64,000 nt of DNA, taken from sequence record MN850576.1. One strand, given 5' to 3'. How positions within the stretch are numbered: the first letter of the stretch is position 1; the number at the start of each line of letters is the position of its first letter. Below the pieces are notes generated by a model. The model saw nothing but the letters and a program-made list of their open reading frames with translations. It searched no databases and was not told the DNA's origin. The DNA is from Escherichia phage ime. A program made the translations under genes and the position numbers. Below, in pieces: positions 10,194 through 41,930 of this stretch.

Positions 10194-10202
10194 AATGACT
10201 CC

Positions 10203-10230
10203 AAATAGAAAATCCCCGCCGAAGCGGGGG
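10203..10230 (-). terminator. Rho-independent terminator
   Basis: Minus-strand hairpin CCCCGC-UUCG-GCGGGG followed by AUUUUCUAUUU. Confidence 0.6.
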
Positions 10231-10242
10231 AGGTCTTAGAAA

Positions 10243-10671
10243 TTAATCGTAGTGTGCCAAAATCTCTCCATCGTTGCAAGTTCCCTCTACAAAGTTATGA
10301 AGATTCATGCACTCATCTTGATAGAAGAATTTACCGCTTTTCAGCCGTAGGCCAAACAACTCCGCATCTCCACGATGGCAAGCCTCTACAAGTTCATAGA
10401 TTTCATACGGCAACTCTCCGTCGTCATGGAAGAATCCAGCCTTATCGTTGACATAAATGAAGAAATAATCACTGCTATCGCAAGCGTCCAATATTTTAAA
10501 CCAGACTTCATCTACATCTTTTTCTCGGATATCGATCACGCAAGTGGAGCTGCATTCGTACTCCTTCTCCGGCTCCTCGGTCAATACCACCAGGTAGTTT
10601 CCCCGCTTACCTACTTTAGCCATACAACCCCCCTTAAGCTTTAGCCAAAATGGCGCTAAACTCTTCACCAA
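10243..10671 (-). CDS. Hypothetical protein (likely start 10623)
   Basis: Called start overlaps the AAA+ gene by 38 nt; internal ATG at 10623 (MAKVGK...) has a strong SD (AAGGGGGG) and is the more plausible start. Confidence 0.5.
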   Translation of the reverse strand: MVKSLAPFWLKLKGGCMAKVGKRGNYLVVLTEEPEKEYECSSTCVIDIREKDVDEVWFKILDACDSSDYFFIYVNDKAGFFHDDGELPYEIYELVEACHRGDAELFGLRLKSGKFFYQDECMNLHNFVEGTCNDGEILAHYD

Positions 10672-11818
10672 ACTCTTTTACAATCTTCATCAGGTTTGGG
10701 TATGCTTTGATCAGCTGAGCAACAATCTTGTCACGCCCTTTACCGATAAGCAAGGCATTTCCTAAGGCATTAGGTTTCATCATCGCCATAAAGACTGAGA
10801 ATACAAAATCTCGGTTCTCGTCCTTGAAGTTTTCCCAAAGGAAATCGAGGAAGTTTGCCACGCAGCTGACAAGATCTTCGTCTGAGATACTTGCATTTTC
10901 CATCATATTGCGAATAGCGATACAACCTTCAGATCCAAGAATCCACAAAATGTCTGGCTGCTTAGGACCTACGTATTCTTTGCAGCCACCTGCCATAATC
11001 CGACCGATTTCCGGTAAATTACGTTTCTTGGTGTGGTAAGTCCAGATCTCTACCGCTGCAGTGTGACCAATAGCACCTTGTAGAAGAACACGGGCCATAG
11101 CGTCAGAAATAATACCGCTGTCAAAATCGTGCAAGATGTCAGATGCAGCAACCCAAGATCGTGGTGTGGCAAAAGATGGACAATTAATCTCAGCCATAGC
11201 CTCATAATTATCAATAGCTGATGGAACTCTTTTCAGATACCCAATTACAGAGGAGTGAACCCCGTTGAGGAATGCGTAGTCCTCAATAAACACCTCTGCA
11301 TTGCTTGTAACCTCTACAATGATAAAACGGTTAGCCAGAGGGGCTTCGAGCGCCGAAAGAACCGCACCATCTGTAGAACGGTTACCCGCAGCCACAAAAA
11401 CAGAACCCTTAGGGAATGCATAGGTGCCGCACTTGTGGTCAAGCATAATTTGCATTGCAACCTTTTGCAGGTAGTTATCTGCATGAGTGAGCTCATCCAG
11501 AAAGATAATTCCGCTCCAGTCAGGATCCGCAGGCCAAAATTCTGGAATTGCAAACACTGTACGTGTAGTTCCATCCGCTTCTACAGGGATAGGTAGCCCA
11601 GATAAGTCGGCAGGATCTTTATCTGACAGTCGCACGTCAACAAGGTTGTCATCTCGCTCACCGAACATATTATCAGCGATCTGCTTCATCACCTGGCTTT
11701 TACCCACACCCATTGGTCCCAAAATTAGGACAGATCGGCTATGACGTTGGGCAAACTGAATAATAGCTGGCAACTCACGGACAGTGATTTGACCACTTTC
11801 GAATACGTTTCTTGACAT
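10634..11818 (-). CDS. MoxR-type AAA+ ATPase (CobS/NorQ-like)
   Basis: Walker A LILGPMGVGKSQ, Walker B GIIFLDELTHA; 394 aa. Confidence 0.75.
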   Translation of the reverse strand: MSRNVFESGQITVRELPAIIQFAQRHSRSVLILGPMGVGKSQVMKQIADNMFGERDDNLVDVRLSDKDPADLSGLPIPVEADGTTRTVFAIPEFWPADPDWSGIIFLDELTHADNYLQKVAMQIMLDHKCGTYAFPKGSVFVAAGNRSTDGAVLSALEAPLANRFIIVEVTSNAEVFIEDYAFLNGVHSSVIGYLKRVPSAIDNYEAMAEINCPSFATPRSWVAASDILHDFDSGIISDAMARVLLQGAIGHTAAVEIWTYHTKKRNLPEIGRIMAGGCKEYVGPKQPDILWILGSEGCIAIRNMMENASISDEDLVSCVANFLDFLWENFKDENRDFVFSVFMAMMKPNALGNALLIGKGRDKIVAQLIKAYPNLMKIVKEFGEEFSAILAKA

Positions 11819-12087
11819 TAGTAAAAGTCCTCTACTTGTGTGTAAGTGTTTTCAAAGTTTTCCAAAACAGATATCACATCGAATCTGTCAATATCATACG
11901 TGACTCTCCAGTTGTACGCAACCCTTTCTGCTGTTGCCTCTTCTGGCGCTAGTCGTCTGCTGGCATAAAAGAGTGTTGGAGTACACTTTCTTGCTTGCCC
12001 TCTAACTTTCCCATAATAATATCTGTGAATATCTTTGTCAAAATTTAACTCTTTTTCTGCACGAAGTTCATATTGCTGGTATAACAT
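11818..12087 (-). CDS. Hypothetical protein
   Basis: 89-aa ORF, start-stop coupled to the AAA+ gene. Confidence 0.45.
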   Translation of the reverse strand: MLYQQYELRAEKELNFDKDIHRYYYGKVRGQARKCTPTLFYASRRLAPEEATAERVAYNWRVTYDIDRFDVISVLENFENTYTQVEDFY

Positions 12088-12131
12088 CTCTACTACTCCT
12101 TAAGCAGCATCCTTGCCGCCATTCCTGCCCA

Positions 12132-12512
12132 CTAAAATGCAGTCCGAATCCAGACAAGGTTCTTATCTGCCCAATCATAGAGGCAAGTCATTGCACTATT
12201 GAATTGCTCACACGGAGGATAATCTTCTTCCATCTGGCGCATAGCAGAGCCTTGTGGGTAAAGCTCCCGTGCTGCAAACCACGCGTCGTAGTCATCAACG
12301 GTGTCGAAGTAGTATACAACATCCTCTAACTCAGGATCGAACTTTGAACTATCAGGATCCAGTTGTTCAGGGAACTTGGAGCGTAACTTGCCAGCCACAA
12401 TACTTGCCAACTCGCTAACATGCTTATTGTCCCACTCCACTAGCTTCCCGTCTTCAGTGATGCGTCCTAACCACTGATCATGAAGGTCAACTGTTGTCTT
12501 CCACTGAGCCAT
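12132..12512 (-). CDS. Hypothetical protein
   Basis: 126-aa ORF in a same-strand array. Confidence 0.5.
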   Translation of the reverse strand: MAQWKTTVDLHDQWLGRITEDGKLVEWDNKHVSELASIVAGKLRSKFPEQLDPDSSKFDPELEDVVYYFDTVDDYDAWFAARELYPQGSAMRQMEEDYPPCEQFNSAMTCLYDWADKNLVWIRTAF

Positions 12513-12514
12513 TA

Positions 12515-12775
12515 TCAGTCCACCTCTTCTTCTCGTTGTAGTTCAAGATACCCGTAGGTCTGGACATCTTGAAGGGTGTGGAACTCCCCCCCCTCTGCCG
12601 CTAAGGCACGAACAACTTGGCACAAAACCTTATGAGGAACTTCATCCAAACCTAGATTCAGTGCAGGAAACACCTTATCTAAGTCAACAAAATAAACGAA
12701 CTGTAGCTCACCAGCTTCAAAAGGTGTATCTTCAATAAACATCTTCTCGGCATTAGTCAAGATCTGCACTTTCAT
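12515..12775 (-). CDS. Hypothetical protein
   Basis: 86-aa ORF in a same-strand array. Confidence 0.45.
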   Translation of the reverse strand: MKVQILTNAEKMFIEDTPFEAGELQFVYFVDLDKVFPALNLGLDEVPHKVLCQVVRALAAEGGEFHTLQDVQTYGYLELQREEEVD

Positions 12776-13152
12776 TATTCTACCTCCTCTTCTTTTTCTT
12801 CGGCATTAGTTTCATGGCTACCCCACTCGGGAGTTTCCACCTCGATAGTAAACTCACGCACTACACGGTAATTGCCCATGAAGCGCTCTACTTCGTCAAG
12901 GCTTATGGAGAGGCCATTGGCAACCAGGTCTGCAGCACCCTCTTCTACCAGGTAGTCCAGATTGGCTTCCAGAGCCTCAGGTTCAAACCCTGTCAATGCA
13001 ATCAGATAACCTTCCCCTTCATCAGGGAGGACAATACAGCCCAATTGATTTTCTTTAAAAAGGCAGTGACCATCATTATTGATTGGGTGTTCATTGCAGT
13101 AAATAGCTGCACGATAAGTAACTTTAGACATCGGTAAGGTCTCCTTAGGCAA
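12775..13152 (-). CDS. Hypothetical protein (likely start 13131, MSKVTYRA...)
   Basis: In-frame ATG at 13131-13129 preceded by AAGGAG; this initiation region is part of a 29-nt inverted repeat shared with 14970-14998. Confidence 0.5.
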   Translation of the reverse strand: MPKETLPMSKVTYRAAIYCNEHPINNDGHCLFKENQLGCIVLPDEGEGYLIALTGFEPEALEANLDYLVEEGAADLVANGLSISLDEVERFMGNYRVVREFTIEVETPEWGSHETNAEEKEEEVE

Positions 13153-13423
13153 TTGTCGTTTTACATTCTTGAAATTTTAACACAAGACGGTGATTGTGTC
13201 TAGTGTCTAAAAAGATTTTTTCAACCATCAGGCACACGGTATAACCGTCAATCTTGTTGACAACAAAATCTCCAGGATGAGGGAGGATGTCTCCCGGATT
13301 GGGGAAACATAGTCCACTCAGAAAGGCATCGTCAGTGGTGGACTTAATAGATTTCCACACACTGTCTGCCTGAACATGTTCACCGACGTAATATACATTA
13401 CCACATGCCTTCATCATAGTCAA
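13145..13423 (-). CDS. Hypothetical protein
   Basis: 92-aa ORF in a same-strand array. Confidence 0.45.
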   Translation of the reverse strand: MTMMKACGNVYYVGEHVQADSVWKSIKSTTDDAFLSGLCFPNPGDILPHPGDFVVNKIDGYTVCLMVEKIFLDTRHNHRLVLKFQECKTTIA

Positions 13424-14319
13424 ACCCTCGCATAAATTAAACTTGTATCAGTATACTTCTTTAATGGGTAAATATCCTGTCCATAGATGCAATCATTAAA
13501 CACCTCATCTACCCAAAGGCTACACTTATATCCCATCATTTCTAAAACACCCATCTCTTCTTCGGTAAACTTATCACCGCTCTTGCAAGATGTCAATACC
13601 TCATTCTGAACTCTTGCTACCTCGAAGCGGTTATTGGCAATATCGCTATTGGCGATCAAATACTCACCTAGAGGGTGTGCGGCATTAAAGATGCACAGTG
13701 GACGGCTGACGTAATAGTCTCCAGGTGTATAAAAATTGTTGAGGTCTTTCACTAGAACATTCTTATCAGTCACTTCATTTATAACATCATGCATATCGCA
13801 CATCTTTATATGTTTGAGGATTCCATCCCCCATCACAAAATAAAAACTTGCTGAGACACTTTCGGCATAGATCTTACTAGATCCGTTGTAGTTGTATTTT
13901 ACTCGGATGCTAACGGGGGTTTTTCCTGTCGCGTTAGCCATCATCCAAAGAAATGGCAGCTCATACTTCTCCTCTGAGGAAACAAAAGGTGAGGTAGCCA
14001 GAGATCGAAAACCTCCAGAGAAGTTGAAAGTTACAGAACCGCTCCGGCGGTATGATACCGCGTATTCTACTTTTATATCGACATACCCATTGGAATAGGT
14101 GTGTCCTTCATTATCTAAATATGTCCACTTATCAGACCCAGATACCAATCTACGCTCAATAACCTTCATCACTATAGGAATTAATGGGTTGGTACAAACC
14201 GCTTTTGAAGTAGCTTTATCATCTAAAGCCTCGTAAATTGCAGAAAGGATGTCCCCAGCTGAAAGATTGGTTGTTATGTCCTGTTTCCACCGCGTACTAA
14301 AACTGTTAAGATTTGCCAT
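13420..14319 (-). CDS. Hypothetical protein
   Basis: 299-aa ORF, first gene of the minus-strand early block; promoter-like element upstream. Confidence 0.55.
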   Translation of the reverse strand: MANLNSFSTRWKQDITTNLSAGDILSAIYEALDDKATSKAVCTNPLIPIVMKVIERRLVSGSDKWTYLDNEGHTYSNGYVDIKVEYAVSYRRSGSVTFNFSGGFRSLATSPFVSSEEKYELPFLWMMANATGKTPVSIRVKYNYNGSSKIYAESVSASFYFVMGDGILKHIKMCDMHDVINEVTDKNVLVKDLNNFYTPGDYYVSRPLCIFNAAHPLGEYLIANSDIANNRFEVARVQNEVLTSCKSGDKFTEEEMGVLEMMGYKCSLWVDEVFNDCIYGQDIYPLKKYTDTSLIYARV

Positions 14320-14359
14320 AAGTAAGTGCTCCTATGTTAGTTTTCTTTCGAATGGGTGC

Positions 14360-14388
14360 ACTATATTGTGGAGTTAGAGTAAAGTCAA
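14360..14388 (-). promoter_or_regulatory. Sigma70-like promoter (TTGACT-N17-TATAGT) for the minus-strand early block
   Basis: Plus-strand agtcaa at 14383-14388 and actata at 14360-14365 (reverse complement TTGACT / TATAGT) with 17-nt spacer, in the divergent intergenic region. Confidence 0.5.
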
Positions 14389-14395
14389 CACGTTT

Positions 14396-15439
14396 TTGAT
14401 GTTGACATCTGTTGAGACAATTGATACGATTTCTTCACTTACAGAGCACGAGAGACGACTCATGAATCTTGAAAAATATTATACACCAGAAGAGTTAGAG
14501 CGCTTGCTCAAAAAATATAGACGCAAACAGAATAACGCACGGAAACGAGATATAGAGTTCGACCTGTCATGGGAAGAATACCTCCTATTTGGTAAAAAAC
14601 TTTTAGGAGATGGAGTATGCGACTATACCCTTATACCTTTTGACATGCACACAGATGAAAACGGGCTGGGGAATCCTTTCTACCCATCTCTGGAGCGGAT
14701 AGATGATGAAGGTCCTTATGCGGTTGATAACTGTTGTGTGGTGGGATTGAGATGCAACTCTCTAAAGGACTGTCTGGTAGATAAAAAGACTGCAGTCTTG
14801 ATTAAAGACGAAACTGATCGAAAAATTGTCCAGCAGATGATGCTCCACCTGAGCGAAGAGCGTATGGAGAAATTGAAAGGTGATTATACTTTTGAAGATT
14901 TCATCTTGCAATATGGAACGGAAGAGGATAAACTAGCACTCTTTGACGAAGAAGAGGAGGAAGATATGCTACCGATGTCTAAAGTTACTTATCGTGCACC
15001 CAAGAAGCACATTTCCGACATTGTAAACGAGCCTATCACAGAAGAGATTGAAGAAATGACGCAACAGGTGCATGAAGAGGAAAAAGAGACTCAGGAGGTC
15101 GAAGAGGAGCTTACAGAAGAGGTTCCTGCACTACCTGATGATGTTGAGATTGCCAAAGCTTACACTTTCTATTGTCAAACGTTCTACGATGTAGGTATGA
15201 AAGTTGATCTGTCGTTCAGCCAATTTAAGAGTTCGTATATTCGCAAATGCTGTGCTTTAACTGGTGAACGTCTTGGAGCTGGACTTAAACCCCTGTTGGT
15301 GACCGACTGGAATAAAGGTTTCACTAAAGGAAACTTTATGGTAGTATCTCCAATTATGGAGAAAGCTATGACAGATCTTATGAAGACCACCCGCATGACA
15401 ATGACCGAGTTGGCAGGTATTTTCAAACACGTTAAATAA
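14396..15439 (+). CDS. Composite ORF: HNH-like N-terminal region, acidic linker, C-terminal domain with internal SD+ATG
   Basis: MHTDENGLGN...SLERIDDEGPYAVDNCCVV resembles an HNH (His-Me finger) motif; EEEEED linker; in-frame internal ATG at 14975 preceded by GAGGAGG. Called ATG 14396 overlaps a TTGACA hexamer, so the true start is uncertain (alternative ATG 14462). Confidence 0.45.
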   Translation: MMLTSVETIDTISSLTEHERRLMNLEKYYTPEELERLLKKYRRKQNNARKRDIEFDLSWEEYLLFGKKLLGDGVCDYTLIPFDMHTDENGLGNPFYPSLERIDDEGPYAVDNCCVVGLRCNSLKDCLVDKKTAVLIKDETDRKIVQQMMLHLSEERMEKLKGDYTFEDFILQYGTEEDKLALFDEEEEEDMLPMSKVTYRAPKKHISDIVNEPITEEIEEMTQQVHEEEKETQEVEEELTEEVPALPDDVEIAKAYTFYCQTFYDVGMKVDLSFSQFKSSYIRKCCALTGERLGAGLKPLLVTDWNKGFTKGNFMVVSPIMEKAMTDLMKTTRMTMTELAGIFKHVK

Positions 15440-15451
15440 TGACAGGGGCCA

Positions 15452-16933
15452 ATGGCCCCTTCTGGAGTTTTAATGGATAGTAGAAGTTCAGAAATCATTG
15501 CCTCGCAGAAAGATGATGCCCTGAGAATGTTGCAGGCTGCACGTATGTATCTCCTTGAAAAGCTGCCGTTTTATGGCACACTACTGTCAGGGTTGCAGTT
15601 CGTAGAAAACCACACATGGTGCTCCACCATGGCAACCGACCATAAACGCATCTATTACAGTCCTGAGTTCATTATGGGATTGGCTGATGAACGCAAGGCT
15701 ATTCTTAAGGCTTCTCTAACTGACGAGCAGTTTGAGATGGCTGAAGTTTTCTATTCCCCAAAATCTGTGAAAGAGGTGGCCTTCCTTCTGTCACATGAGG
15801 TGGGGCATATTATCTGTGATCACCTAGTCCGTGGTAAAAGCTTTGAGCCGGAACTGTTCAATATTGCTTGTGATCACGTTATCAACACAGGCCTTGTGGT
15901 TGACTTTAGCAAACCTCCTTGTGTTTTCTTCCCGAAGGGGAAAAGCACTACGTTCATGAAAGGTAAGCCTTTTGGCTTCTTAGCCAGCTGCTACTGCGAC
16001 ATGAAGTTTCATGGATGGATTGCTGAGAACGTTTATGCAGTTCTTGATAAGCAAAGAGATCAGAATAACGGTAAAAGTAAGAACGGTAAAGGTGAGAACT
16101 CTCAAAGTGATAAGCGACAAACCGATGATCACATGAGTGGGAACGGTGGCACCAGTGATAATCTTGGAAAGGCTATGAGGTATGATCAGCCACAACCTGT
16201 AATCAGCCAATCTGATAAAGATCAGGCCATGCAGGACTCTGGTGATATGCTGGAGGCAGCAATGCAAGCGTCCGGAGGCCGTTGCCCTGAGGCGGTGCGT
16301 GAGTTTGTCAAGAACAGAGGTAAGCCTGTAATCAACTATATAGACATCATTAAGCAACGTATGTTGTCTAAAAGAAAGGCCGAACTGACCTACAGAAAAC
16401 CTGGTCGCCGATCTGGGTCTTTGACCAGCACAATGCGAAAAGTTGGGGCTATAAACAAGAACCAGCACGTTATTGTTCCTGGTCGTAATCCGGAAAACAC
16501 TATAGATATTGTGGTGGCTTTAGACGTTTCTGGCTCGATCTCTCAAAGAACTTTAAAGAAAATGTTCAATGAAATCACCGGATTGTGCAATCTGTATAAA
16601 GAGTTTAAGGTTACAATGTTCTGTTGGTCAACTGAGGTTGGAGAGGTTAAAGTATACACTCGCGGCAACATAGACGAGATGGTCAACTATGAGGTCCACT
16701 CAACATGGGGCACAACAGCTGCTTGCGTGTTCGAGTATCTGGATGCCAACATACCTAATGCAAAAGATGTCATCGTCCTGACCGACCTATACTTTGAGCA
16801 TAACTTTGAACAAAAGGTTGTTGACAACAAGTGGAAAAAGTACGATACTCTATGGGTCCTCACTGAGGGGTATAATAAAAATTATATCCCGAGCTTTGGG
16901 AAAACTGTGGAATTAATCGAGTACGCTAAGTAA
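15452..16933 (+). CDS. vWA-domain protein with N-terminal HExxH metallopeptidase-like region
   Basis: HExxH motif LSHEVGHIICDH; MIDAS motif VVALDVSGSIS (DxSxS); 493 aa. Confidence 0.7.
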   Translation: MAPSGVLMDSRSSEIIASQKDDALRMLQAARMYLLEKLPFYGTLLSGLQFVENHTWCSTMATDHKRIYYSPEFIMGLADERKAILKASLTDEQFEMAEVFYSPKSVKEVAFLLSHEVGHIICDHLVRGKSFEPELFNIACDHVINTGLVVDFSKPPCVFFPKGKSTTFMKGKPFGFLASCYCDMKFHGWIAENVYAVLDKQRDQNNGKSKNGKGENSQSDKRQTDDHMSGNGGTSDNLGKAMRYDQPQPVISQSDKDQAMQDSGDMLEAAMQASGGRCPEAVREFVKNRGKPVINYIDIIKQRMLSKRKAELTYRKPGRRSGSLTSTMRKVGAINKNQHVIVPGRNPENTIDIVVALDVSGSISQRTLKKMFNEITGLCNLYKEFKVTMFCWSTEVGEVKVYTRGNIDEMVNYEVHSTWGTTAACVFEYLDANIPNAKDVIVLTDLYFEHNFEQKVVDNKWKKYDTLWVLTEGYNKNYIPSFGKTVELIEYAK

Positions 16934-31251: not shown

Positions 31252-32292
31252 CTATGCATAATTAACAGTGATCCATTGACCATTTACAAGTTTTTGTAAA
31301 GGTCCTGCCCAGTAGGTTGAACCACGCATCTCTTTTTTGTCACCGAAATGCCAGCCTGTGACAACGTATCCGTTGCGGATTGGAGATTCAGAAACGCCGT
31401 CCACAAGTCTTGCACCGATTCTGATGTCTTGCACACCTGTCTGCGGGATAGTGATCGTTACATCACCGTTACCGTTAGCCGTCACTCCATTCACGGAGCG
31501 CACCACATTTCTGTTACCGACAACACAGTGCTGGCTTCTTACAACCATACTGTCACAACTTGCACCACCATTGACATATACTGACCCAGCCGTCAACTGA
31601 CTGGCCACATTACAGTTGGTGAATGTTGCTGTATTGCTGATAGTAAGGTTATTGCACCTCATGTTATCGACAACTTCAACATTGCCTACCACTTTCAACA
31701 GCGCACGATTAGCCGTGATCGCGTTAAGGTACATCAAAGTGAACTCTGGATTAATATCCGGCTGAGTTGGCTGGAATCTCCAACGAAACGCATCTACTGT
31801 AGATGTACCACCATCATCAAACGACCCGGTATTATCACTTAACCCAAAGTCGAGGGTTGTCTTATCTGGGCCAATAGTTGTCTCTATCCAAGCCTTATCT
31901 GTCTCGGCAGCTTTAAAGTTGATACGTTGCAACCCCAAGGGGCCTGTCATTGTATCACCTGTAACTTTTACATACCTGGCGTCTGCCTCTTCCTTAGTGA
32001 TAATCCCAAGGTTTCTACGGGCAACAGGAATGTTCAAAAGATCGCTCAAGTTATTATCACGTACCAGATAACGGCCTTCTTGAGCTGGGATCTGCTCGTC
32101 AGCAATGTATTTTGCCCAAGTCCCGAGCATATTGAAAATATAGTTAAGTTCTTCACATGAGGGCTTTTGACCAAGATCCCAACCTTTTCTCCACAAATCA
32201 TCAATCGGGCGTAGCCTGTTCTGTCTGTGGGTGTTAGGCAGAACCTGATCCTCCTCTGCCCAAATCTCTAATGGAAAACTAGGTTTTGACAT
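31252..32292 (-). CDS. Tail fibre protein, paralog B
   Basis: 346 aa; paralog of 29194..30240. Confidence 0.6.
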   Translation of the reverse strand: MSKPSFPLEIWAEEDQVLPNTHRQNRLRPIDDLWRKGWDLGQKPSCEELNYIFNMLGTWAKYIADEQIPAQEGRYLVRDNNLSDLLNIPVARRNLGIITKEEADARYVKVTGDTMTGPLGLQRINFKAAETDKAWIETTIGPDKTTLDFGLSDNTGSFDDGGTSTVDAFRWRFQPTQPDINPEFTLMYLNAITANRALLKVVGNVEVVDNMRCNNLTISNTATFTNCNVASQLTAGSVYVNGGASCDSMVVRSQHCVVGNRNVVRSVNGVTANGNGDVTITIPQTGVQDIRIGARLVDGVSESPIRNGYVVTGWHFGDKKEMRGSTYWAGPLQKLVNGQWITVNYA

Positions 32293-36627: not shown

Positions 36628-36636
36628 TCTGAGCAT

Positions 36637-36662
36637 AAAAATAAACCCCGCCGAAGCGGGGC
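36637..36662 (-). terminator. Rho-independent terminator
   Basis: Minus-strand CCCCGC-UUCG-GCGGGG followed by UUUAUUUUU, directly after the stop of the J-like gene. Confidence 0.65.
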
Positions 36663-36670
36663 TTTAAAGG

Positions 36671-39600
36671 TTAGTCGTGAGACTCGTTCCAAGGTCCCTG
36701 GAAGCTTGAGTTAGAACGACTAACGATCACAGTGGGACAGGAGATTGTGACACCTGTCACGCTAGACGTTGACCACGGTGTGTAAATCTCGACAATAATG
36801 TCTATAGTTTGTTCACCTAGACCAGTTATCCCTACCGCACACATGCCGTTGTTGTCGTTTCCGTACTTCTTACCTGCAAGGATTTGATGTCCGGCTATCC
36901 AAACGTTAAGCTGGGAGCCAGACAATGTCCCGTTTAGTTTAAAGAAGAATGTTACGTTCTTACCTTGTCCTGAAACGTTGTCCACATATCTCCACCTCCA
37001 ACGGCAAACCCTCTGCTGCGAGTTGTATACTGGAGGACAGTCACCGTAGGTTCTGTGTGCAACTATTGCACCTTCGAACTGGTTAGCACGGATAACAGAA
37101 GCTTCTACACGCCCACGGAAGGTACCTCCAGTTGCATCTATGGTACCCCTAAAGTTACCATTATTGGCATAAACATCTCCACGGAAGGTACCACTGGTGG
37201 CGTTAACTGCCCCTGTGAAGTTACCAGAACTGGCGTTGATGTTGCCTTTCACCCACACATCCATAAATTGGGCGTGCCCGTTCTTGTTAATGTACCAACC
37301 GTATTTATGGTACCCGTTGCCATCGTAGTTGTTTGACGAAATTTCTTGTGCGATCTTGGCAGAGGAGATCGTGCCATTCTCTATAAAAGCGTCTTTCAAG
37401 AACGCTTGGTTGTTCTTGATTGCGAAAGCAAGGGTTGCTGTTCCATTTCCAGGGTTGTATACCGCAAAATTGTTTGCACTAACCATGAAGTAGGATTGAA
37501 CTTGTCCTCCAGACCCCTCCATGCCTAGCTGGATACCTGCAACATACTTATTCCCTGCAGAGTCTACCTGAATCTTAGCTCCCCACTGAGCATTTATTTT
37601 ACCCTCAAGTGTTGTTACAGCTTTAGAGGTATTAGATACTGTAGCCCTGAGCTCATCAATATTACCCATTTCGTCAACAATTTCTTGTTTTGCAGAGGTA
37701 AGTTCTTGACGGATCGCTGTGGCTGTATTATTAACAAGATCAACTGTTGTACTATTAGTTTCTTGAATAGATGCTTGCAGATTGGCAACCTCTTTCTGCA
37801 CATCATCTTCCAGCTTGGTGATCTTCCCTGTAGCTGCCACCAGATCCTGCTTAATAGCTTCCGTTGTCTTATTTAGCAGATCTGTTGTTGCCTTGTTGGT
37901 TTCTTGAATAGAGGAGTTAAGTTTACTCTCAGTGTTCTTCAACTCTTCCCGCAGAGTACCTTGAGTTGCAGTTATTTGCTCACTCAATGCTTGAGTTTTA
38001 CGATTAACAAGATCAACGGTTGATCTATTTGTTGTCTCGATTAGTGACCCAAGCCTACCAGACTCTGCTGCAAGTTTATCGTCAAATGATTGCTGAGCTG
38101 CTACCAGCTTACTGTTAAGGGCAGAAATTTCTCCATTAACCCCTGTAAATTTTTCTGTCGTCTCTCTGACAACACCCTCTATTGTATCCCCAAGCTCTTC
38201 AAAAATGCTAGTAACACGGTCATTGACTGCACCAACATTTTTATCCATTTCCTTGACTGCATTATCAAGATTGGCGGTAAGCTCTTTATAAGTCTCTGTC
38301 TTTTTGAACTCAGCATCAATCTGTGGCATAAGATCTTCTATGGATGTGTAACAGTGGGCTGCACACTCCACAAAAGCAGATGAACCAAAAGCATTTGTTG
38401 TCCTGATATACCAGTAATAAATCTTATCGTTCTGCAGACCTTCAGATGTCCAAGTTGAACCAACACCCATACGAGTGGCTTTTGAAGTAACGGTTGCATC
38501 ACTGGTATCTGGCAATCTTGTCATCCCAGATGTCCAAAAGTCGTACTGGGTGCTTACACTAGCCAAGTCTCTGCTGTGCGGGATCAGGGTAATAGCAAAG
38601 TATCCCTGTTTAACTTCTACAGAAACCGGAGCCTCAGGTGCCTGAATGTTAAACTCACAGTATGCTTCTGGAGATACACCACCTTTATAAGATGTTGCAA
38701 CAACAGTGGCTGTGTAGGAACCTTTAGTCAGACCTTCAACACGGACAAACTGCTCAACTGTCTGCGCTGTCCAGACAATCTCTCCGTTTTTCCTGACCTG
38801 CACAATGTTTTGAGCATAAGTCCCAACGTTGTCCCAAGCCAAAACACCGTGAGTTACTTCTCCAGCTTGGAGAACGGAATATCTGAAGTTTTGCGGTTGA
38901 GCTACACCAGATGGAGATATCGGAATATCTACATCGCCAGAATCCGGAAGTTGCCCTGTGGCATCATTCCACTCTTTAGCATCTTGACGAAGTTTTACCT
39001 TGACACCCCCCTTTTTGGTAAACTCCCATTCAAGAACTCTCATTTCTTGGCCCACTATACCAATACTTGGGAGGTCCATTGTAACGTAACGACCAGGTTT
39101 AAATTTGAAACCTCGCATATTGCAGGTGACTTCAATAATCCTGCCAGCTCTGGCACGTCTTAGGAAGATTGCAGAAACACGCTGAGCTTGATAAGGACTG
39201 GTAACAAAGCGATAGTCTATATCGATTATCTTTCTTTCTCCATCCTTCTCTATCCACTCTGGGACAAACACTGATGGAAAATCTGTTTCAGAATACCCTT
39301 TGGTAGGACTGGTGAATCTGCCAGTTATTGTGTTGGATCTTTTGTCAAATGAGGCTTCCGGATAGATCTTGACCTCACCACAGACACAATCCTCACTCAG
39401 TGTCATTGTTGCCGGGCCATAGTATGCACCAACCAGCAAACCATACTTACCAGCTACATAGCTGAGATCTGCACCACAAGCTTTCAGCATTTCTGCCATA
39501 ATGCTTGCTGGGGCCTCATCCATGTCAAACTCACCGTTAATGGTGTAACGTCGCTCACTGGTTCCGTCAGCGTTTTTTACCGCCTCGTCGCATATGTTGG

Positions 39601-41900: not shown

Positions 41901-41930
41901 CAAACAAAAAGCCCCCGCCGAAGCGAGGGC
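41901..41930 (-). terminator. Rho-independent terminator
   Basis: Minus-strand GCCCUCGC-UUCG-GCGGGGGC followed by UUUUUGUUUG. Confidence 0.6.

Follow-up and report, generated by a model that had tools for sequence, protein, structure and literature searches.

A perfect 29-nt inverted repeat in two unrelated Vequintavirus genes probably arose by a single templated mutation

A perfect 29-nt inverted repeat connects two genes of Escherichia phage ime, and we consider it, with a probability of a little over three in four, to be the trace of a single templated mutation rather than a functional element, the start of ORF8 having been copied into the linker of ORF11. The repeat, TACCGATGTCTAAAGTTACTTATCGTGCA, is located at 14970-14998 on the plus strand and at 13108-13136 on the minus strand of the window, i.e., the whole analyzed stretch of 64,000 nucleotides from record MN850576.1. 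The genome is that of a Murica-type Vequintavirus, an rV5-like coliphage. The following features are of relevance:

12775..13131, minus strand: ORF8 (rV5 numbering), 118 aa with an acidic C-terminus, annotated from the ATG at 13131 in Murica, pangalan, rV5, and others
13108..13136, minus strand: putative donor arm, comprising the last 5 nt of the ORF8 leader (TACCG) and ORF8 codons 1-8, ATG TCT AAA GTT ACT TAT CGT GCA
13141..13146, minus strand: ORF8 Shine-Dalgarno sequence AAGGAG, 9 nt upstream of the ATG at 13131, outside the repeat and overlapping the ORF9 stop codon
14462..15439, plus strand: ORF11, a 325-aa Srd-like/HNH-EndoVII-like protein with two conserved domains and an acidic linker of variable length between them
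14954..14968, plus strand: SD-like GAGGAGG (Glu codons, 14954-14960) and an internal in-frame ATG (14966) 5 nt downstream
14970..14998, plus strand: putative recipient arm, the presumably copied patch in the acidic linker of ORF11, from the second base of codon 170 (CTA, Leu) through codon 179, L-P-M-S-K-V-T-Y-R-A
14978-14990, plus strand: patch core TCTAAAGTTACTT, 13 nt replacing 25 nt of most relatives

The first-pass annotation of this DNA had reported a 29-nt perfect inverted repeat. Our recount gives the same length, while the left arm was shifted by one nucleotide to 13108-13136 instead of 13109-13137. The length is exact, as the flanking bases on either side are mismatched, and the repeat is not part of any longer duplication. 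Its arms are separated by a spacer of 1,833 nt and form the sole perfect repeat of at least 18 nt within the 64-kb window, with only two copies of the 29-mer per phage genome. A chance origin was excluded, as none of 100 dinucleotide-preserving shuffles produced such a match, even with three mismatches allowed. Each copy consists of 5 nt of leader, an ATG, and seven further codons, and both are in frame, encoding (L)PMSKVTYRA. The two genes had been described as otherwise unrelated, and this proved correct: beyond the arms, no homology between ORF8 and ORF11 was detected in proteins or DNA, and in rV5 there is none at all.

The minus-strand arm belongs to the natural start of a gene. The proposal that this gene begins at the ATG within the repeat agrees with the database annotations, and an RBS is annotated at the AAGGAG site in Murica and Mangalyan. 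A TTG further upstream is disfavored as the start, because a 1-nt indel between it and the ATG disrupts its frame in relatives. ORF8 matched phrog_12908, a family of unknown function, and was confined by tblastn to 116 Vequintavirus-type records; judged by these searches, it is a genus-restricted ORFan. Its arm was found with zero to two mismatches in all 19 Vequintavirus loci compared as well as in one IMG/VR contig and one metagenome contig, and it runs seamlessly into the conserved ORF8 N-terminus in all genomes compared. Six positions of the 29-mer vary in this arm (2, 3, 5, 11, 16, and 17); the changes fall in the leader and at wobble positions, plus one second-position change from Val to Ala in codon 4.

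The plus-strand arm lies in a far less constrained part of its protein. ORF11 matched phrog_3118 and, more weakly, the Srd/decoy-of-sigma70 and endonuclease VII families, and its description as Srd-like/HNH-like also rests on the rV5 paper (PMC3606486). A Pfam search of ORF8 to ORF11 returned no matches. The D+E fraction is 0.35 in the linker versus 0.20 in the protein overall, and both the length and the sequence of the linker are variable, within the genus as well as among outgroups. Across the Vequintavirinae, ORF11 homologs are syntenic between genera and share 37-40% identity, with linkers differing in length and sequence. A suspected internal duplication of the two ORF11 halves was not supported by BLASTP.

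Both arms differ considerably in their distribution. The ORF8 arm was present in 19 of the 19 genomes compared, the ORF11 arm in only nine of them, the window included. In the database, 27 of approximately 120 records carry the ORF11 arm; about 78% of the genus, rV5 and FV3 among them, lack it. Non-carriers have 25 different bases at the site, flanked by short matches to ORF8, and a 25-nt version of the linker is common to three deep ORF11 lineages, i.e., Aya, the rV5 group, and the FV3 group. Carriers are spread over at least four clades of the ORF8-ORF10 tree (midpoint root). In ECP32 and inoa, ORF11 is mosaic and shares only the region of approximately 14820-15200 with the window. In five of the nine fetched carriers, a set that includes the window, the two arms are mismatched at 1-2 nt (nomine, Alma, A51.2, PMBT16, and ECP32). 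The ORF11-arm variant of ECP32 (TACCT...) equals the ORF8 allele of other lineages, for which a chance of about 0.08 was obtained as a rough estimate from approximately seven observed ORF8 variants among 87 possible single substitutions. This match weakly hints that the arms continue to exchange sequence.

The comparison of alleles with and without the patch carries the argument for copying. Genomes without the patch hold an imperfect inverted repeat, in which ACC(G/A)ATG and ATCGTG(C/G)A(GC) occur both at the start of ORF8 and in the linker of ORF11. The rV5 versions of these matches, ACCGATG and ATCGTGCAGC, measure 7 nt and 10 nt, respectively, and they enclose 13 nt at the ORF8 locus and 25 nt at the ORF11 locus. 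Reconstructed from such alleles, the linker of the Murica-type ancestor would have read ...ACC(G/A)ATG-[25 nt]-ATCGTG(C/G)AGCC.... Its two short matches occur in the same order as in the inverted ORF8 start, ...TACCGATG-[13 nt]-ATCGTGCAGC..., 1.8 kb away, and this likeness to ORF8 is a chance resemblance. The derived ORF11 allele contains the 13 nt of ORF8 in place of the 25 nt, plus the T and G of ORF8 at repeat positions 1 and 5. The outcome of this replacement is the 29-nt identity and a net loss of 12 nt (four codons) in frame, and the probability that the 13-nt core would be identical to ORF8 by chance is about 4^-13. The transfer was non-reciprocal: carriers and non-carriers do not differ in their ORF8 arm, and only ORF11 was altered. 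This pattern points to a single microhomology-primed copying event, which may have been a template switch or a short ectopic gene conversion.

Such an event would proceed in two steps. A 3' DNA end in ORF11 would prime on the ORF8 copy via the left microhomology, and after approximately 13-21 nt had been copied from ORF8, it would return via the right one. The microhomologies would measure 3+3 to 7 nt on the left and 6 to 10 nt on the right, as inferred from cousin alleles of an unsampled pre-event recipient. The 3' end could stem from a nascent strand at the fork that switched to the single-stranded opposite template, or from a break whose end was repaired on a second genome copy by synthesis-dependent annealing. 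The patch may have survived because the frame was kept and the site lies in a disordered, indel-tolerant linker, and ordinary homologous recombination may later have moved the patch allele onto different genomic backgrounds. With regard to such hitch-hiking, the occurrence on several backgrounds could instead reflect positive selection. The peptide and the ATG context common to both genes would be by-products of the copying. Against this model, the spacer of 1,833 nt has to be considered, as replicative copying would depend either on a long stretch of single-stranded lagging template or on a donor in another molecule.

Error-prone synthesis need not be invoked for the substitutions beside the patch (TCA to CTA, GCC to CCC, and AAC to AAG), because the entire window-type linker differs by about 15% from all alleles that lack the patch. 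Intermediate alleles, i.e., those with the patch but without the neighboring substitutions, were not found in INPHARED, IMG/VR, or metagenomes. Other templated pieces in the linker were likewise rejected, as 12-mer matches elsewhere in the window were few and near the 1.8 expected by chance.

A reversed direction of transfer is highly improbable. Here, the MSKVTYRA-type linker would be older in ORF11 and the ORF8 start would have been copied from it, or both would descend from a third, unsampled source. What leaves room for this reading is that the polarity trees have a midpoint root only, and that outgroups cannot polarize the change: the ORF11 homologs of Seunavirus, Mydovirus, and Avunavirus can be aligned over the two domains, whereas their linkers cannot. 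However, it requires that the ORF8 start was rewritten in the ancestor of the genus and that the same 25 nt were restored in three deep lineages, and the continuity of the arm with the conserved ORF8 N-terminus in all genomes speaks against it as well. As for a third source, no further copy of the 29-mer was found in phage genomes, E. coli, or the IMG/VR and metagenome scans; a host origin was rejected with no match in 5,426 E. coli genomes.

It is also unlikely that the 29-mer acts in cis as an RNA or DNA element common to both genes, such as a translational operator, a site for a regulator or RNase, or an imported initiation region. In this case, an internal start would express the C-terminal domain of ORF11 separately, and ORF11 would be put under ORF8-like control. 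Both copies are indeed sense in their mRNAs and include the ATG with identical downstream codons, an SD-like GAGGAGG is located upstream in ORF11, and selection could explain the patch allele on several backgrounds. However, the first-pass annotation had placed a shared Shine-Dalgarno sequence in the repeat, and this did not hold: it lies outside in both genes, ORF8 having its own AAGGAG, and the GAGGAGG of ORF11 being too distant from the ATG at 14975, with 14 nt between them. Relatives without the patch also have the Glu run and the two internal ATGs of ORF11, which were thus not created by it. ORF11 remains one unbroken ORF in all genera compared. A regulator site failed the conservation test, given an ORF11 copy missing from about 78% of the genus, rV5 and FV3 included, and an ORF8 copy that drifts at six leader and codon positions, with unequal arms in five carriers. 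No structure above shuffles was found either; the 29-mer had a folding z-score of about 0, and both 86-nt contexts were insignificant versus shuffled controls. Promoter and terminator hits were at background (8 versus 6.6 expected). The earlier suggestion of a shared translational operator or regulator site is thus left unsupported by the mostly absent ORF11 copy, the diverging arms, the unshared SD, and the missing structure. Pairing between convergent transcripts, which had been proposed as well, does not apply: the genes are divergent, and their mRNAs are unable to pair via the repeat because both carry the same sense sequence.

The geometry of the repeat would also permit recombination between the arms, which would then serve as a substrate for inverting the 1.8-kb segment as a domain-shuffling switch. 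If true, the ORF11 N-domain would be fused to ORF8, and the ORF11 C-domain would stand alone downstream of the ORF8 SD. This works on paper with both arms in frame, and the divergent promoter region lies inside the segment, so every gene would stay transcribed. We nevertheless regard it as having very little probability. All 115 records with at least 80% coverage aligned collinearly across the 4-kb region as one unbroken piece, a metagenome contig was collinear as well, and only one orientation of the segment was found across approximately 119 relatives. Moreover, no recombinase was found in neighboring ORFs, 29 bp are marginal for homologous recombination, and the arms are already unequal in some carriers.

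The least probable reading, to which we give almost no weight, takes the arms for the terminal inverted repeats or homing boundary of a mobile element carrying ORF9, ORF10, and the N-terminal segment of ORF11. The 29-bp inverted repeats do bracket 1.8 kb, and the ORF11 N-domain shows HNH/EndoVII-like similarity. However, the segment occupies the same place and orientation in all of the approximately 119 relatives, including the roughly 78% without the ORF11 copy, no transposase or integrase was found, the flanks TAAATAGC and CCCAAGAA show no target-site duplication, and ORF11 is syntenic across the Vequintavirinae genera. The recombination or homing junction proposed initially was therefore retained only in the broad sense of a recombination footprint left by templated copying; a homing or insertion junction conflicts with a segment that is collinear everywhere. 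It is very doubtful, too, that the patch, through its in-frame import of the start context of ORF8, gives Murica-type phages a new capability, which might be an internal start releasing a free ORF11 C-terminal domain or a rare inversion exchanging the contexts of the ORF8 body and the ORF11 C-domain.

Templated copying, the reading we prefer, resembles several known processes. Ripley-type template-switch mutagenesis at quasipalindromes has been described in phage T4, E. coli, and yeast. The model was first put forward for phage by Ripley, and switching between imperfect inverted repeats leads to identical arms and multi-nucleotide changes in coding DNA (PMC8604942). Our case is similar in that an imperfect repeat was made perfect by an exact copy of the other arm (29/29), apparently primed and resolved at short flanking matches, and that several adjacent codons were altered. 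In contrast to the cases surveyed, for which only spacers of up to 70 bp were considered and shorter ones were favored (PMC8604942), the spacer here is 1,833 nt. Furthermore, 25 nt became 13 nt with a net deletion instead of a few substitutions, and as a hairpin is an implausible intermediate, the switch would have to be cross-fork or intermolecular.

Ectopic gene conversion or microhomology-mediated templated repair shares with our case the non-reciprocal transfer, the unchanged donor, a tract of approximately 21-29 nt, and a donor that lies elsewhere in either orientation. Such events can plausibly take place in phage pools, where genome copies are numerous and recombination is active. Conventional and recombinase-driven gene conversion usually requires more flanking homology than 7-10 nt, whereas only 7-10 nt and no extended homeology are available here. 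The best evidence for templated insertions at microhomology comes from eukaryotic end-joining rather than from phages. Phage translational operators such as the T4 RegA and gp32 targets are similar in that their sequence spans the ATG and first codons in more than one mRNA. Here, however, only one copy is a genuine initiation region, the second is ORF-internal, mostly absent, and not co-conserved, and no repressor is known for the 29-mer.

Most likely, the 29-nt repeat is an ordinary mutational scar. Its value is mostly methodological, as no new system was revealed, but it provides a natural example of a short perfect repeat between unrelated phage genes with traceable donor, recipient, and flanking microhomologies. 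It also cautions that, without comparative data, an isolated perfect repeat at a start codon should not be taken for a regulatory site. For the phages themselves, it would mean that, in a lytic phage, templated copying can reach across approximately 1.8 kb of the genome and change four to nine codons of a disordered linker in a single step.

The plus-strand sequence TACCGATGTCTAAAGTTACTTATCGTGCA at 14970-14998 is the exact reverse complement of 13108-13136, and since mismatching bases border both arms, the repeat is exactly 29 nt long. The first-pass annotation was thus correct on the perfect match, the length and the plus-strand copy, and only the left arm (minus strand) had been placed one base too high. 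No copy with up to three mismatches appeared in shuffles of the window, and this is the sole perfect repeat of at least 18 nt, direct or inverted, within the 64 kb; it is real and non-random. Its arms lie in two genes, numbered here as in phage rV5:

12775-13131, minus strand: ORF8, 118 aa, annotated from the repeat ATG in all records inspected
13108-13136, minus strand: minus arm, a 5-nt leader plus ORF8 codons 1-8
14462-15439, plus strand: ORF11, 325 aa, phrog_3118
14970-14998, plus strand: plus arm, from within codon 170 through codon 179 of ORF11

ORF8 is an ORFan confined to Vequintavirus. Its AAGGAG motif lies 9 nt upstream of the ATG and not within the repeat, and a longer reading frame is ruled out by a 1-nt indel between an upstream TTG and the ATG in relatives. 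ORF11 was described as an Srd-like 'anti-sigma factor' in the rV5 paper (PMC3606486); besides phrog_3118, weaker matches to HNH/EndoVII-like and Srd families were obtained, and homologs with 37-40% identity are found across the Vequintavirinae. Alignment with those of Seunavirus, Mydovirus and Avunavirus revealed two conserved domains separated by an acidic linker (D+E fraction of 0.35 vs 0.20 overall), of which neither length nor sequence is conserved, and the plus arm sits inside this linker. Outside the eight shared residues, no likeness between the ORF8 and ORF11 proteins was detected, and in rV5 the two share nothing.

With Murica-type Vequintaviruses (rV5-like coliphages), the window shares 99.8% identity; approximately 120 records match it with at least 89.7% identity, and every one of them is collinear across 12000-16000. 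Over this region, sixteen records (MG0656xx) that are named 'Campylobacter phage' and list C. jejuni as host show 93-99.5% identity to rV5-like coliphages, and their host labels look doubtful. When 19 Vequintavirus loci were compared, the ORF8 arm was present in all of them with 0-2 mismatches. These affect leader and wobble positions, except that the second base of codon 4 is changed once (GTT to GCT, Val to Ala). Only nine of the loci (window, Murica, pangalan, inoa, nomine, Alma, A51.2, PMBT16 and ECP32) have the ORF11 arm. A 76-nt probe across this ORF8-like patch detected it in 27 of the ~120 records, representing 25 distinct genomes; both arms were perfect in 22 of the 27, and no genome held a third copy.

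All genomes without the patch read ...GATATG TC ACC(A/G)ATG CAGGAYTTTAAAAAYTTCATGGCTG ATCGTG(C/G)AGCC AAC... at the ORF11 site. In rV5, the ORF8 locus is T-ACCGATG-[TCTAAAGTTACTT]-ATCGTGCAGC-TATT and the ORF11 locus C-ACCGATG-[CAGGATTTTAAAAATTTCATGGCTG]-ATCGTGCAGC-CAAC, so that the two loci, inverted relative to each other, already had microhomologies of 7 and 10 nt in matching order. In the window lineage, ORF8's 13 bases stand in place of ORF11's 25 intervening bases, an in-frame replacement (net -12 nt) that turns SPMQDFKNFMADRAAN into LPMSKVTYRAPK. At repeat positions 1 and 5, too, the patch allele follows ORF8 (T and G) and departs from the C and A of most recipients. At least about 21 nt were therefore copied, the remainder of the 29 nt being pre-existing identity. 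Three deep lineages of ORF11, namely Aya and the rV5 and FV3 groups, all have the 25-nt form, and the allele comparison indicates that the carriers are a derived set. ORF8 was the donor and ORF11 the recipient of a non-reciprocal event with microhomologies at both ends, the frame being kept in a tolerant linker. The explanation that fits the repeat best is a mutational scar: a patch templated once through microhomology and later spread by recombination.

A shared translational operator or regulator site, as proposed in the first-pass annotation, is not supported in view of the absence of the ORF11 copy from most of the genus, the drift of the ORF8 arm, the divergence of the arms in carriers, and RNA folding no better than in shuffles (z about 0). 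As to internal initiation at 14975, the SD-like GAGGAGG is 14 nt from that ATG, and this motif and both internal ORF11 ATGs also occur in alleles without the patch. RNA-RNA pairing of the transcripts is impossible because the repeat has the same sense in both mRNAs. For a homing or mobile boundary, neither presence/absence polymorphism, a recombinase nor a target-site duplication was found. An invertible segment is unlikely (no inversion in any genome, no recombinase), and a host origin was rejected, the sequence being absent from E. coli genomes. A sigma-70-like match (TTGACG-16 nt-TATGCT, 14943-14970, plus strand) ends on the repeat's first base; it scores 9/12, with such matches at chance frequency in the region, and the T at position 6 of its -10 hexamer is confined to patch alleles (TC to CT change).

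For the patch itself, a 3' end finishing in ...ACCGATG would anneal to the complementary ORF8 strand, be extended by about 13-21 nt and re-anneal via ...ATCGTGCA. Two versions are possible. One is the replicative, Ripley-type template switch (reviewed in PMC8604942). With an inverted donor 1.8 kb off, the end of the leading strand would presumably have to copy from the lagging template, still single-stranded about one Okazaki length back from the fork. Alternatively, another genome copy may have served to repair a break by synthesis-dependent annealing. The spacer of 1,833 nt far exceeds the 70-bp ceiling for template-switch repeats in the PMC8604942 survey, and conventional gene conversion uses far more flanking homology than this event did. 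It therefore resembles both processes and is typical of neither.

ORF11 alleles in Vequintavirus are recombination mosaics; in both domains the rV5 type agrees with the window, and in the linker (14912-15110), which behaves as a separate hypervariable module, it differs by at least 15%. Carriers are spread over at least four clades of the ORF8-ORF10 tree, and this, together with the mosaic ORF11 of ECP32 (window match restricted to about 14790/14820-15200) and inoa (from about 14820 on, or about 14820-15200), argues for one origin of the allele and its spread by homologous recombination. The window-type linker is ~15% diverged from every non-patch allele on both sides of the patch; hence, the few substitutions beside it do not call for a cause of their own, and the immediate recipient lies outside the sampled alleles. 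IMG/VR and metagenome scans yielded no intermediate alleles, one IMG/VR contig being FV3-type and one 137-kb human-gut contig carrying the window sequence at both arms. In five carriers, the resident ORF8 arm and the ORF11 arm differ by 1-2 nt, so nothing holds the copies identical. The ORF11 arm of ECP32 (TACCT...) is identical to the ORF8 arm found in O157 typing phage 4 and navn, ECP32's own ORF8 arm being TATCA...; the arms may have undergone a second conversion in some earlier genome, or a point mutation may have produced the match by coincidence (chance probability about 0.08, a rough estimate).

Further features of the window are:

10634-11818, minus strand: AAA/MoxR-like ATPase
15452-16933, plus strand: DUF2201_N + VWA-like protein
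15444-15460: perfect GC-rich palindrome AGGGGCCATTGGCCCCT between ORF11 and the metallopeptidase gene
10202-10229, 36634-36661 and 41901-41928: A-rich stretch followed by the GC hairpin CCCCGCCGAAGCGGGG, three copies
37713-38044: 59-nt unit, three copies, spacing 132-141 nt, 64-71% identity
29195-29256 and 31253-31314: 62-nt segment, two copies 2,058 nt apart, 82% identity

The first two form a MoxR-VWA-type pair flanking the divergent early region. The palindrome is a terminator in the Murica annotation and overlaps the first ATG of the ORF listed at 15452-16933. The hairpin copies are probably a reused intrinsic-terminator motif, and the 59-nt and 62-nt repeats probably represent internal repeats and paralogous gene segments. 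In RefSeq NC_041871 and NC_024134, ORF11 and the downstream DUF2201 metallopeptidase/VWA protein are both named 'HNH endonuclease' and the small ORF5 'ATPase', which look like propagated mis-annotations.

The general interest of the repeat is low; it is a tidy case, from a phage genome, of a known mutation class reaching unusually far.
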